In this document: piece after piece, positions 39,738 through 47,074 of the stretch
Layout of the letters: the number at the start of each line of letters is the position of its first letter
Position numbering within the stretch: the first letter of the stretch is position 1
Source of the DNA: Escherichia coli
Lineage (GTDB): Bacteria > Pseudomonadota > Gammaproteobacteria > Enterobacterales > Enterobacteriaceae
DNA: 64,000 nucleotides
NCBI RefSeq assembly: GCF_045037415.1
Contig: NZ_CP173438.1
Strand: one strand, 5' to 3'
The notes under the pieces: generated by a model
What the model was told of the DNA's origin: nothing
The model's input: only the letters and a program-made list of their open reading frames with translations
Database searches by the model: none
Program-made: the position numbers and the translations under genes

Positions 39738-40064
39738 TACAACCATCAGGGGGAATATTGCTCTGGCAGCATGCAAAATGGCATCTGAATCGATCGCAGT
39801 TTGGCATTCGAATCGATCATGATTTGGCGGTGTTTTTCAAGGTAGTTGTCGCTTTTTGTAATAAAATTACGTTATGCAGCCTCTTTTTCTGGATTCAGGT
39901 AGACTTCTGATATGTAGTTCCAGTTACGTAGATACTTGCCCCAACGTTCAGGATGTTGCTCGCGAGCTAGCTGGTATACCGCTTTTCAGGCTGCCAGTAT
40001 TTTCATGTCATTACCTTGATGACGCTCGGCTGGCGTGACGTATTTGATCCCGCTGTGCTTATGT

Positions 40065-40541
40065 TCAAAGTTGTACCAGTTTACAAAACTGGTTTACCCA
40101 TACTCTGGCATCATCAATAGTGCGAAAACCGTTCTCAGGCCACCAGGGACAATATTTGAGAGTCCGGAACAAAGATTCTGAGTAAGGATTATCATTACTG
40201 ACTCTTGGCCGGGAATAAGAACTTAGCACACCAAGCGCATACATTTTCGCCAACAACGTGTCACTGCGCATGGGACCACCGTTATCAGAATGGAGTACCA
40301 GATTGTTGGATGAACATTTTTCATTCCATACTGCACGCTGGAGTAGTTCTGCTGCATGTTTTCCAGATTCGCTGGCAAATACCTCAGCAGCAATAATTTT
40401 GCGACTGTAAATATCGACGATCATATAGAGGTAAAAATGCTGGCCTCTGACCCAGGACGGCAAATAGCTGATGTCCCAACTCCAGACTTGATTCGGTGCA
40501 ACGGCCCTGAGTACATCAGGCCAGTTTATACTGGCATTCAC
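40065..40541 (-). pseudogene. IS3-family transposase OrfB fragment (DDE integrase core)
   Basis: rve-core sequence (WSWDISYLPS..., HSDNGGPMRS); upstream part separated by the IS66 insertion at 40612. Confidence 0.7.
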
Positions 40542-40693
40542 GGGATCGTTTCTTCAACTGCTTGGCTGATTTCAGTACACGATAAAAACTTGATTCAGAA
40601 GCAATATAAATGTAAGCGTAAAGCCAATGCCGTCTGTAACACCTGCTCCTTGCAGACTAAATTAGAGCTCCTTCTAAATTAGACGGAGTTCTA

Positions 40694-41131
40694 TTGATGG
40701 ATAAACCTACAGACTGGCGCTCCGGAACCCGCCGGATATTTTCTAATGAATTTAAACTTCATATGGTTGAACTGGCTTCGAAACCAAATGCCAATGTTGC
40801 ACAACTGGCCCGGGAACATGGCGTTGATAACAACCTGATTTTTAAATGGCTACGCCTCTGGCAAAGAGAAGGACGTATTTCTCGTAGAATGCCTCCAACT
40901 ATTGTAGGCCCTACAGTATCACAATCTTTTCCGGCCTCTCCGACTCTGGTTCCAGTGGAACTTATCGACACCCCGCGCTGTGCTACAGATGCTCCTGCTC
41001 CGGAGGCATTATCAGGTGCTTGTGCAGCTTCCTGCCATGTGGAATTCCATTACGGTAAAATGATGCTGGAAAATCCTTCACCAGAGCTGCTCACGGTGTT
41101 GATCCGTGAGCTGACCGGGAGGGGACGATGA
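40694..41131 (+). CDS. IS66-family accessory protein TnpA (orf1)
   Basis: 145-aa ORF; typical IS66 orf1 sequence and position. Confidence 0.8.
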   Translation: MMDKPTDWRSGTRRIFSNEFKLHMVELASKPNANVAQLAREHGVDNNLIFKWLRLWQREGRISRRMPPTIVGPTVSQSFPASPTLVPVELIDTPRCATDAPAPEALSGACAASCHVEFHYGKMMLENPSPELLTVLIRELTGRGR

Positions 41132-41478
41132 TTTCACTCCCATCAGGTACCCGTATCTGGCTCGTTGCCGGCGTTACTGATATGCGTAAATCCTTCAACG
41201 GTCTGGGGGAGCAGATACAGCATGTGCTGGATGATAACCCCTTCTCCGGTCACCTGTTTATCTTCCGTGGCCGACGGGGAGACACGATTAAAATCCTGTG
41301 GGCTGATGCTGATGGTCTGTGCCTGTTCACCAAACGCCTTGAGGAAGGTCAGTTTATCTGGCCTGCGGTGCGTGACGGTAAGATATCCATTACCCGCTCG
41401 CAACTGGCAATGCTCCTCGATAAGCTGGACTGGCGTCAGCCAAAAACATCCCGCCTTAACGCACTGACAATGTTGTAA
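41128..41478 (+). CDS. IS66-family TnpB (orf2)
   Basis: 116-aa ORF overlapping tnpA stop; sequence MISLPSGTRIWLVAGVTDMRKSFNGL typical of IS66 orf2. Confidence 0.8.
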   Translation: MISLPSGTRIWLVAGVTDMRKSFNGLGEQIQHVLDDNPFSGHLFIFRGRRGDTIKILWADADGLCLFTKRLEEGQFIWPAVRDGKISITRSQLAMLLDKLDWRQPKTSRLNALTML

Positions 41479-41508
41479 AAAACTCCTGACCGCATTATAA
41501 AAACGGCC

Positions 41509-44386: not shown

Positions 44387-44480
44387 TTCTTCGGTAGCGA
44401 TCACGGCGGCGAGCGTGGTGCACTGTTGTACGGGCTGATCGGCACCTGCCGGTTGAATGGTATCGATCCGGAAGCGTATC

Positions 44481-45933
44481 TCTTATGACCTTTGTCAAAT
44501 ATTAAGCCCAAAAAGACCTTACGCAGCTCCGGGAGCTTCGTTATATCGCGGATTAAAGAACCTGAAACAGTCAGACTGTATCTTGGATTTTACAAACTCT
44601 TATTCGGGGATTTTAGCCCCATGACGATTTACGCAGTGAGCTGGCCTCTTTCTACGTGCAGGTATTAGCGCATTCTGGCTTCCCTGAATTCTTTTACGAG
44701 GATCACTCATTCCGTGTCTGACTGCTTCAGGGTTTAATTTTGCTTCTGCTGACTGAATGATGATTGGGCAGCAAGTGCAATATCCCACATAAATCCAGTC
44801 AACTCACGAGCCACCGCCGTAATGGCTACTTGTGATTTTTTCCCTTTTGCTGTCAGACTTCGGTAACGAGAACACAATCGTTGTTGAGCTTTCCATGCAA
44901 TATCTTTGGAATATTGTGTTACAGAGTCCGGTCGGTAATATATAAGCCATGCCCCAACTTTTGCAGGTGTACGATAAGACCAGGCGGCTTCGTAAAGCAG
45001 ACGTCTCAGTTCGCTGTTTCCAACTTTTGTTATTCCTCTGGGACGAATACTGTTTCCACTGGAATATTCACCTGGCACCAGTCCCAGAAAAGCCATGAGC
45101 TGTTTGGGATTGGAAAATCGCGAAAAATCACCCAGTTCAGCAACCAGAGTTATTGCAATTAGCTGACCAACACCTTTAAGAGCCTGCAACTGGCAGACCA
45201 GATTGCACAGAGACCACTCAGGTAACAGGCGAGATATTTCCTGGTCGAGTTGAAGTATGCGATCTTCAATCTGCTCCAGACTCTGACAATAGTGTTGAAA
45301 AGCAATCTGTTGAGATGGCTGACTAAATGATTGATTAGCTAACCAGGTTCGATGTTTTCCTGTCCAGTGCTTTCCTGCATAATGTTTGTCTGTTCGCAAT
45401 AGCATGCTCAGAATTCGCTGTCGGGCAACTCTGCTGTCTCGTTTAGCTGCTGCACGGGCTCTGATTAGATCCCGCATAGCTTCATGAGTCAGGTCAGGGA
45501 TCCAGACAGGGGTAAGTTCTCCAGCCCGCAGTAACCTGGCGAGAGAAATTGCGTCCCGATGATCATTTTTGATTCTGTCTGTCGGTGATTTTGGTATGCG
45601 GGAAGGGGCAATAACCTGGCATTTTATATTCATCGCTGTGAGTTGATGATATAGCCCAAAACCACAGGGGCCAGCCTCATAGCAGGAAAGAATGTTTCCG
45701 TAAAGTCCCTGCAATTTCTGAAATAATCGACGTACAGCCTGGGCTTCGTTGTTAATCGTACCATAATAACGAACTTCGCCAAGCCGTTCAGGTGCAGCAA
45801 TAGCAACCGCCAACGTTTCTTTATGCACATCCAGCCCGACGTAAGCCGCAATATTTTCCGAATGCATGATGACCTCCTCTGGAATATCCCACCAATGCTA
45901 TAGTGAGTATATAAAGGTCATATCATCTACGTG
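44481..45933 (-). mobile_element. IS110-family element, copy 2 (identical tandem copy)
   Basis: Sequence repeats copy 1 with a 1547-bp period; identical 377-aa ORF. Confidence 0.75.
44734..45867 (-). CDS. IS110-family transposase/recombinase (377 aa), copy 2
   Basis: Identical translation to copy 1. Confidence 0.8.
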   Translation of the reverse strand: MHSENIAAYVGLDVHKETLAVAIAAPERLGEVRYYGTINNEAQAVRRLFQKLQGLYGNILSCYEAGPCGFGLYHQLTAMNIKCQVIAPSRIPKSPTDRIKNDHRDAISLARLLRAGELTPVWIPDLTHEAMRDLIRARAAAKRDSRVARQRILSMLLRTDKHYAGKHWTGKHRTWLANQSFSQPSQQIAFQHYCQSLEQIEDRILQLDQEISRLLPEWSLCNLVCQLQALKGVGQLIAITLVAELGDFSRFSNPKQLMAFLGLVPGEYSSGNSIRPRGITKVGNSELRRLLYEAAWSYRTPAKVGAWLIYYRPDSVTQYSKDIAWKAQQRLCSRYRSLTAKGKKSQVAITAVARELTGFMWDIALAAQSSFSQQKQN

Positions 45934-46276
45934 TTCTTCGGTAGCGATCACGGCGGCGAGCGTGGTGCACTGTTGTACGGGCTGATCGGCACCTGCCGGT
46001 TGAATGGTATCGATCCGGAAGCGTATCTGCGCCATATCCTGAGCGTACTGCCGGAATGGCCTTCCAACCGAGTTGACGAACTCCTGCCATGGAACGTAGT
46101 ACTCACTAATAAATAAGCGTCAATACGGTGCTCCGTTGACGCTTACATATAAATACCTCTGTCTGCCAGAGTTGGTACGATCACATTTGGAGGCAAGGAT
46201 GCAAACTCTGGAGAGTTGCACAACTCCAGTATTCGCAATCTTTCCGCTTCTGACAGCTTATTTCGGGGAGAGCTGT

Positions 46277-47035
46277 TTACAGTATCGGATCTTCGGTCCG
46301 TGGTGATGATGTTGCCATTAGTCCAGCGCTGAAGTGTCCGAATAGAAATACCGATACACCTACAAGCCTGACCTTTCCGGGCGCCGTTGGCGACGGCCTC
46401 ACGGACAAGAGAAATAATTTTATGCCGCTCCAGGAGAGGGGGCAGTCTTCCTCGCTGTTGTCCCAGAGGGCATTGAACTTTTCCCTTAATATAAGCAGGG
46501 CCGCAGCTTCCGCCAGAGCTTTATCTTTGCGCTTAAGCTCTTTCTCCAGTTCTCGTAACTTATTTTTTGCGTCACGCAATGCCCTGTCTGTTCGAATATT
46601 TTCCGTCAATTTTTTTCATGCGCCTGAATTGAGATAGCCCGCCATTCTTTAACCTGTTCAACAAACAATCCCATGCGTCGGCAATAATCGGCAAGCTCCA
46701 TTTCTGACAGTGTCAACGACGGATGAAAAGTGATCCACTATTGCACCGTTCGTGACAGACAGCGTAGCCGTCTCAAGAACAACTGAGAATCGACGCTCCG
46801 GTGTCCAGTCTTCAACATCAACGGAGGTAATCTTTTCATTTTCAGGTAAAAGTCCTTGCTCCACTAACTCACATCTCCATTTTGATACAACTGAGGCACT
46901 GATCTTCAGCTTCCGGGCTATCTGACGGTGTGACCAACAGTATGGTGGCAAAAGCCATATCAGTCCTTTTTCTTTGAGCTCATTTGGTATTGGTTGTCCT
47001 GGCATTGTTATCTCCTTAAAAAATTGAGGCGACAA
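46277..47035 (-). pseudogene. IS transposase OrfA remnants (HTH + leucine-zipper fragments), probably the IS3-family element split by IS66
   Basis: Two ORFs in different frames: HTH-like (46658..47035) and coiled-coil LRELEKELKRKDKALAEAAALL (46277..46609); family uncertain. Confidence 0.5.
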
Positions 47036-47074
47036 CTATGCTGACACAGGGGGGTTATTGAGTGATCTCCTTTC

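Follow-up and report, generated by a model that had tools for sequence, protein, structure and literature searches.

Tandem duplication of ISEc45 in a nest of three insertion sequences of Escherichia coli, and related duplications that share a boundary at the element tip

We analyzed a stretch of 64,000 nucleotides of Escherichia coli DNA (RefSeq assembly GCF_045037415.1, contig NZ_CP173438.1), referred to here as the window, in which three insertion sequences (IS) are nested between positions 39831 and 47048. An IS3-family remnant is split by the IS66-family element ISEc43, the tnpC gene of which is split by ISEc45, a member of the IS110 family; we regard this nesting as practically certain. 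An earlier interpretation made without database searches (the sequence-only reading) had described an IS110-like element inside IS66 inside an IS3-family element. The families and their nesting were borne out, but the innermost level is a tandem pair and not one element. This tandem duplication of ISEc45 and its flank, which that reading missed, is the sole unique feature of the window. The explanation developed below is held with good confidence as a whole, and its parts are graded where they are discussed. The features of the locus are as follows; a slash within a sequence or between adjacent positions marks a junction, and a pseudo-site is a weak look-alike of the ISEc45 target.

39831 to 40611, minus strand: IS3-family remnant, 3' part, comprising the right inverted repeat and the catalytic core and C-terminal part of OrfB, which is frameshifted near 40065
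40604 to 40611, no strand: ISEc43 target-site duplication, copy 1, ATATAAAT; single copy in uninterrupted genomes
40612 to 42934, plus strand: ISEc43, left 2323 bp, with tnpA (40694-41131), tnpB (41128-41478), and tnpC codons 1-475 (41509-42933)
42935 to 44381, minus strand: ISEc45 copy 1, 1447 bp, with tnp at 43187-44320 (377 amino acids [aa]) and a 61-nt 5' leader; bounds ambiguous by one T
42935 to 43186, minus strand: 3' noncoding region of ISEc45 copy 1, predicted guide (seekRNA or bridge-like) RNA, from its fold, guide/target matches, and conserved structure
44382 to 44481, plus strand: first copy of a 100-bp ISEc43 tnpC segment, with the pseudo-site ...GCGTAT-CT at its end; 44481/44482 is a novel junction
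44482 to 45928, minus strand: ISEc45 copy 2, with tnp at 44734-45867; 100% identical to copy 1
45929 to 46146, plus strand: ISEc43, right 218 bp, with the second copy of the 100-bp segment (45929-46028), the remainder of tnpC to 46116, and the right end
46147 to 46154, no strand: ISEc43 target-site duplication, copy 2, ATATAAAT
46147 to 47048, minus strand: IS3-family remnant, 5' part, with the left inverted repeat, OrfA pieces (47035-46658 and 46609-46277), and the OrfB N-terminus

The two outer fragments are parts of one IS3-family element, as follows from the rejoined reading frame, the matches to the intact form, the annotation of that form, and the profile score of the repaired OrfB. The sequence-only reading had noted IS3-family open reading frames on the same strand at 40065-40541 and 46277-47035, had proposed that IS66 split a preexisting element, and had suggested in silico excision as a check. 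Both frames are present on the minus strand, and the Pfam domain rve was detected in 40065-40541. Excision of 40612-46146 together with one copy of ATATAAAT produced a single minus-strand frame across the joint (...NVIVPTLADRGIYIASESSFYRVLKSAKQ..., ...PTLADRGIYIASESSFYRVLK...). At least 24 complete RefSeq genomes of E. coli contain the rejoined DNA (39731-40611 joined to 46155-47148, a 1875-nt query that takes in 100 bp of flank per side) uninterrupted, as one contiguous match of 1875/1875 (100% identity), and 228 records span at least 80% of it. The conceptually repaired OrfB scored 188 bits against the NCBIfam model NF033516 ("IS3 family transposase"; cut-off, 160 bits) over profile positions 101-368, which draw on both sides of the junction, and OrfA showed a weak match to positions 7-96. 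The uninterrupted copy in E. coli SMS-3-5 is annotated as "IS3 family transposase; frameshifted; internal stop"; the element was already a pseudogene in its uninterrupted form, before it was split.

The fragments that the sequence-only reading assigned to IS3 are thus real, but the remnant extends further, from 39831 to 47048. Three-frame translation places the N-terminus of OrfB to the right of ISEc43, whereas its C-terminus runs to the left of 40065 via a frameshift; the 3' part also includes the copy of ATATAAAT at 40604-40611. The right inverted repeat reads TGTTTTTCAAGGTAGTTGTCGC from 39831 and the left one TGTGTCAGCATAGTTGTCGC from 47048. These ends have TGT and a 10-nt block in common, the flanks outside them (CGG and GGG) differ, and we infer the exact ends from the match of the inverted repeat at 39831 to 47029-47048. 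Like other IS3-family elements, the remnant has TG...CA ends and an OrfA (helix-turn-helix and leucine zipper) followed by an OrfB with an rve core; it differs in being a pseudogene, disrupted by a stop and at least two frameshifts, and in its length of 1675 bp, which is long for the family. No intact copy or ISfinder name was found for it, and no empty site was present in complete E. coli genomes. Just outside the inferred end, at 39779-39824, there are two 23-nt near-repeats, TGGCATCTGAATCGATCGCAGTT and TGGCATTCGAATCGATCATGATT, which are 74% alike.

We identified the middle element as ISEc43. After excision of ISEc45, it is identical to ISEc43 across all 2541 bp, and a 619-nt segment spanning the ISEc45 site, with the inner element excised, matched intact ISEc43 copies in one piece (619/619). 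Its RefSeq annotation is "IS66-like element ISEc43 family transposase," the Pfam domains HTH_Tnp_1, TnpB_IS66, DDE_Tnp_IS66, zf-IS66, and LZ_Tnp_IS66 were detected, and the element scored 394 bits against NF033517 (cut-off, 180). The left end (GTAAGCGT..., at 40612) and the right end (...ACGCTTAC, at 46146) form an inverted repeat beginning with GTAAGCG, with identity over the 8 terminal nt and 13 matches among the 20 outermost nt. Both ends directly abut ATATAAAT, in agreement with the earlier proposal that an 8-bp direct repeat (40604-40611 and 46147-46154) bounds the IS66 element; this octamer is single in genomes with an empty site. The window contains four copies of it against 2.5 expected, and 23 of 100 shuffles reached four, so that its count is not significant alone; what matters is its position abutting the ISEc43 ends. 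The element therefore resembles ISEc43 in its tnpA-tnpB-tnpC layout, GTAAGCG ends, and 8-bp target duplication and differs in that tnpC is broken at codon 475. Because of this interruption, it cannot make its own transposase and could move only with TnpC supplied by another copy.

The innermost element is ISEc45, of the IS110 family. Its tnp agrees in DNA sequence, at 100%, with the RefSeq gene for WP_000555401.1, for which RefSeq gives the name ISEc45, and the approximately 100 N-terminal residues of ISEc45 shown in supplementary file 6 of PMC11187229 are identical to those of the protein encoded here. The transposase contains the domains DEDD_Tnp_IS110 (PF01548) and Transposase_20 (PF02371) and the conserved serine motif GLVPGEYSSG, and it scored 279 bits against NF033542 (cut-off, 140). 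The empty site in ISEc43 reads GAAAAAT/TACGTG; there is no net target duplication, and the position of the insertion is ambiguous by one base. As in other IS110-family elements, terminal inverted repeats are lacking and insertion is site specific. In its length of 1447 bp and the lack of a target duplication the element agrees with ISEc45 as catalogued, from which the window differs in having a tandem pair and 100 bp of duplicated flank.

The second copy of ISEc45 does not appear to be a second insertion; we infer instead that the unit formed by ISEc45 and 100 bp of flank was duplicated in tandem. Positions 42934-44480 and 44481-46027 form a perfect 1547-bp tandem repeat which, with one shared T, spans 42934-46028, and each ISEc45 copy is followed by the identical 100 bp of ISEc43 tnpC. 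The right junction of copy 2 is canonical (...ATCATCT/ACGTG). At the novel junction 44481/44482, only 1 nt is common to both sides, and this junction was absent from all complete RefSeq E. coli genomes. The same locus was found at approximately 100% identity in 11 complete RefSeq genomes, each with one ISEc45, where it measures 5804 bp as opposed to 7351 bp in the window.

These 11 genomes also bear on the order of events. The sequence-only reading saw in the region a record of successive transposition events; the order of ISEc43 followed by ISEc45 at this locus is not established by these genomes, because all 11 genomes with ISEc43 at this IS3 site also carry ISEc45 and an identical ISEc43::ISEc45 composite is present at other loci too. 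Among the RefSeq genomes, none was found in which ISEc43 occupies this IS3 site and lacks ISEc45. The nest is known, ordinary biology: each of the three elements has been catalogued, and annotation of the nest exists for 11 complete genomes. Nested insertion sequences are routine in E. coli genomic islands and the locus itself matters little, although it provides a clean worked example for reading transposition order from empty sites.

The layout of ISEc45 is IS1111-like. It has 252 nt of noncoding DNA downstream of tnp compared with 61 nt upstream, and subterminal inverted repeats (TTATGACCTTT and AAAGGTCATA) located 1 and 6 nt from the tips. With the IS1111-type seekRNA elements ISEc11, ISKpn4, ISPa11, and IS4321/IS5075 (Siddiquee et al. 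2024, PMC11187229) it shares the long noncoding region downstream of tnp, the subterminal inverted repeats, and the GL-P----SG motif; it differs from them in its target, a protein-coding motif within a transposase gene, and in its 377-aa transposase, which is longer than the 330 to 350 aa quoted for IS1111 transposases. In view of this length, we describe only the layout as IS1111-like and do not file ISEc45 in the IS1111 subgroup. The element shares with IS621 and CazIS110-1 a DEDD transposase with Transposase_20, a CT crossover dinucleotide, and a predicted two-loop RNA in which one loop would read the target and the other apparently the element ends; it differs in that the predicted RNA gene lies 3' of tnp and is oriented oppositely with respect to the CT core, and in that a TT core is tolerated in ISEc43. 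When the element ends are joined into a hypothetical circle (42935-42960 to 44360-44381), with a junction predicted to read ...CATATCATCT/CTTATGACC..., a perfect -35 hexamer, TTGACA, would lie 11 nt from the tip and 17 nt upstream of TATGAC in the other end, which is a possible junction promoter. Such promoters are known for circle-forming insertion sequences. In a metagenome contig (L025; L numbers are our locus labels), the C-terminus of an IS3-family transposase (...VELATLTWVDWYNNRRLLERLGHTPPAEAE...) abuts ISEc45 approximately 110 nt from its tip, in the noncoding region, and thus represents a further insertion level, into ISEc45 itself.

We consider it highly probable that ISEc45 is RNA guided and aimed at the K-K-N/Y-V codons of IS66-family TnpC and that its clade is specialized on IS66. 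The 252-nt noncoding region folds with a z score of -2.7, and in the predicted RNA a long outer stem (43014-43029 with 43169-43184) encloses two modules. The first contains an internal loop with the 5' strand GUAAAAGAAUU and the 3' strand CACGUAG. The 5' strand (..AAGAA-UU) corresponds in sense to AAAAA-(C/T)T, the left half of the target with the crossover bases, and G·T and U·G wobbles would let it accept both core variants, whereas the 3' strand CACGU-AG is complementary to the right half, CT-ACGTG. The second module consists of a GGGG/CCCC hairpin followed by AUAAGAG, which corresponds to the element's own end plus crossover bases, and this loop apparently reads the element ends. An RNAalifold consensus of ten noncoding regions of relatives kept the stems framing the internal loop and showed compensatory changes, with 5 of 14 pairs changed on both sides. 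According to this model, the location of ISEc45 is the one specified by its predicted 3' RNA.

The distribution of ISEc45 and its relatives points in the same direction. In metagenome contigs and other genomes, ISEc45 occupies the same tnpC position in no fewer than three IS66 lineages of E. coli, and since most of these sites read AAAAA-CT, CT appears to be the usual core and the TT of ISEc43 a tolerated variant. Two secondary targets outside IS66, in a DUF4942 gene (GGTAAAGAGGA-CT-ACGAAG) and in intS (GCAAGAAGAA-CT), both have a purine-rich run before CT, and one has ACG after it. The window contains the first of these sites unoccupied (...GGTAAAGAGGA-CT-ACGAAGATG..., at 18543-18544, minus strand, in a DUF4942-domain gene), and in strain 219 (NZ_CP020514, L038 17097-18543) it is filled by a third ISEc45 copy; the window therefore provides an exact empty site outside IS66.

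Transposases 43 to 72% identical to that of ISEc45 were recovered from other phyla. Relatives with both ends on the contig, with transposases 56 to 68% identical, came from Nitrosomonas, Planctomycetota, Sphingomonadales, Rhodobacteraceae, and Novosphingobium. A number of observations were made on these distant relatives. (i) They have the same end sequences as ISEc45 (AGATGnnATGACC ... GGTCATAAG), and the subterminal repeats covary among them. (ii) They occupy homologous codons of very different IS66-family tnpC genes, and in silico excision restored the TnpC frame in five relatives, in which TnpC is 31 to 49% identical to that of ISEc43. (iii) AAGAA-UU is retained in the 5' loop strand and corresponds to the K-N codons. 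(iv) In the 3'-loop guide, the three bases adjoining the crossover agree with the flank in every element compared (7 of 7), namely, CGU with CGT, GCC with GCC in five cases, and GGU with GGT. From the sequences compared, we conclude that the ISEc45 clade, across several phyla, is probably guided to G-(R/K)-K-N/(W/Y)-(L/V)-F in the transposase genes of IS66 elements; the same position being used in very different tnpC genes, its members would therefore be specialized IS66 parasites. IS4321 and IS5075 target the ends of Tn21-family transposons, and ISEc45 is similar to them in targeting another mobile element.

Several points weigh against the guide model. The right half of the target is read loosely, since ISEc45 copies with a CACGU guide are also found beside TTATG and ACCTG flanks, and for CAUAUAG, a naturally occurring guide variant, the agreement with the flank is not clean, although some of the contigs with this variant may be chimeric metagenome assemblies. 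Covariation of guide and flank is clear only with the distant relatives; among the near-identical copies from E. coli and metagenomes, the TTATG and ACCTG flanks pair uncleanly. An Rfam scan of 39500-47500 at E ≤ 1 gave no match, and the RNA guide, the circle junction, and transposition are predictions from the sequence. 

No matches to an exact 28-mer of the ISEc45 end were obtained in one-genome-per-species contigs, nor to a 25-mer in viral contigs. In the literature, we found no description of the ISEc45 target, of an ISEc45 RNA, or of an IS66 specialization of IS110 elements. In several metagenome contigs (L022, L035, and L036, among others) the left and right flanks of ISEc45 derive from different IS66 lineages, and the same GGAAATAAAAACT left flank occurs with either ACGTG or TTATG on the right; such mixed flanks could have arisen when ISEc45 copies residing in distinct IS66 elements recombined, or they could be chimeras of short-read assembly.

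The duplication in the window is one of a series. We found nine tandem duplications of 45 to 1622 bp, eight of them involving ISEc45 and one a relative from Belnapia, in which one boundary lies exactly at the RNA-gene end of the element.

96 bp: L003, GN02270
119 bp: L008, metagenome contig
172 bp: L007, metagenome contig, and L041, ECamp083
195 bp: L040, C 691-04A
349 bp: L020, metagenome contig
843 bp: L002, EECO1006
1547 bp: the window
1622 bp, element and flank: L039 892-3960, E. coli CH4804, in another IS66 lineage; pseudo-site ...GGAACGTAGTA-CT
45 bp: L056 1700-1810, Belnapia moabensis, with a transposase 49% identical to that of ISEc45; same tip

All eight ISEc45 junctions read N-CT/CTTATGACC. 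In Belnapia, the equivalent AG precedes the junction, read on the other strand, and the internal pseudo-site GAAAG/CGGGCG resembles that element's own flank, AG/CGGCCG. The pseudo-site of the 172-bp duplication, CTCTTT-CT-ACGTG, is the DNA that encodes the guide itself. Apart from CT, the pseudo-sites have nothing in common with the other end of the element (CATATCAT-CT). No description of IS110 tandem duplications or of off-target duplications caused by bridge RNA was found in the literature.

We lean toward the transposase as the agent that made these duplications. In the window, it would join the RNA-gene end of ISEc45 (CTTATGACC...) to GCGTAT-CT, a site that weakly resembles the target and is situated on the sister chromatid at a distance of 1547 bp. 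Such joining would be a one-ended, illegitimate form of the normal ISEc45 strand transfer, and resolution or replication of the intermediate would give rise to the tandem duplication. More generally, each event may be seen as an exchange of the left junction of the element (in the CT orientation) with a target-like CT site shortly rightward on the sister chromatid, and this exchange model is the single mechanism that fits all nine events. A 2025 preprint describes that CazIS110-1 transfers one junction (LT-RD) efficiently to a new left target and that the second step is inefficient; by analogy, the tip-anchored duplications may correspond to this one-ended LT-RD transfer.

Alternative explanations differ mainly in how they deal with the duplicated flank and with the exact boundary at the tip. 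An origin independent of the transposase, through slippage during replication, microhomology-based unequal exchange, or an instability brought about by the long noncoding hairpin, would be in keeping with the fact that bacterial tandem duplications with 0 to 2 nt of junction homology are common, and the 96-bp pseudo-site lies at the foot of the 16-bp inverted repeat at 43014-43029. Against it stand the nine events in independent genomes or samples, including a distant relative, in which one boundary coincides with the exact element tip. In addition, C precedes the shared T in 4 of the 4 events in which CT is free of search bias (the window, L002, L003, and L056), for which a C frequency of 0.23 gives 0.23^4, or ~0.003; the remaining events were found by searches that required or favored CT. 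The duplication sites are also target-like: the eight ISEc45 pseudo-sites scored a mean of 6.9 compared with 4.9 out of 20 for 109 other CT sites of the element and flank (permutation P = 0.004), on a 20-position similarity score that was picked after seeing the data. We therefore consider this origin unlikely, though the least so of the alternatives. Insertion of an ISEc45 circle into a pseudo-target within the resident copy, followed by homologous recombination between direct repeats that deletes a part, would yield positions 1 to n of the element followed by positions 1 to 1447 for the internal events (n = 96 to 843), and it would account for the survival of short repeats at the RNA-gene end. 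It requires two steps where one does, however, and cannot produce the duplications in the window (1547 bp) and in L039 (1622 bp), where flanking DNA was duplicated, which makes it an unlikely explanation.

An assembly artefact as the source of the tandem copy in the window is suggested by the perfection of the repeat, by the absence of the novel junction from complete RefSeq genomes, and by the 11 otherwise identical single-copy loci; yet assemblers tend to collapse perfect repeats and not to invent novel nonhomologous junctions, and four complete genomes produced by other laboratories contain comparable structures, among them the element-and-flank case L039, so that we judge an artefact to be quite unlikely. 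It is very improbable that an excised circle inserted independently, in the ordinary way, at a secondary target lying 100 bp beyond the first copy. Secondary CT sites are used by ISEc45, and the pseudo-site GCGTAT-CT-GCG is somewhat target-like, but such an insertion predicts the arrangement L-IS-100 bp-IS-GCGCC and an addition of 1447 bp, whereas the window contains the 100 bp twice and the canonical right junction of copy 2, and the shorter events add 96 to 843 bp. In its simple form, a second insertion is ruled out by the duplicated flank and this canonical junction. Insertion of a small aberrant circle was likewise rejected on account of the duplicated flank and because a 96-bp double-stranded circle is physically implausible.

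One-ended transfer by the transposase thus remains the explanation that we prefer, and a few further considerations speak against it besides the search bias and the choice of score given above. The survey of duplications covered the RNA-gene tip only, so that the one-endedness is a presumption. The tandem copy in the window is known from the assembly alone. The parallel with CazIS110-1 further assumes that the RNA-gene end of ISEc45 is the equivalent of the "RD" of IS621-type elements.

Taken together, we tentatively put forward, as a possibility to which we give slightly less than even odds, that an old RNA-guided clade of IS110 type resides in IS66 tnpC with a guide that tracks the host codons and that the duplications are fossils of one-ended "direct transfer" at target-like CT sites. 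If true, they would constitute in-genome evidence for a direct-transfer pathway that has so far been proposed only from reconstituted systems and a natural readout of the off-target behavior of bridge recombinases. Clade-wide targeting of IS66 with guide-target covariation would offer a ready series of matched guide/target pairs for work on bridge RNA and seekRNA, and N-CT/CTTATGACC would be a searchable or selectable signature with which one-ended transfer in vivo and the form of off-target sites could be tested. The IS66 targeting and the tip-anchored duplications are side observations of this locus that may merit specialist attention.

The genomic island around the nest also carries mobI, a RhuM-family gene, toxin-antitoxin genes, and a type I restriction system (window 47848-48897 onward; L004). 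ARAGORN detected no tRNA in the window. The neighboring stretch of SMS-3-5 contains a Kiwa antiphage system interrupted by ISVsa5. Comparison of the window with strain 219 showed that the core part (1-17200, the ilvB-uhp-ade-setC region) is 94 to 97% identical with insertions and deletions, whereas the island part, from approximately 18.5 kb on (18500-64000), is 99.99 to 100% identical; the island appears to be shared, horizontally or by recombination, between differing backgrounds.

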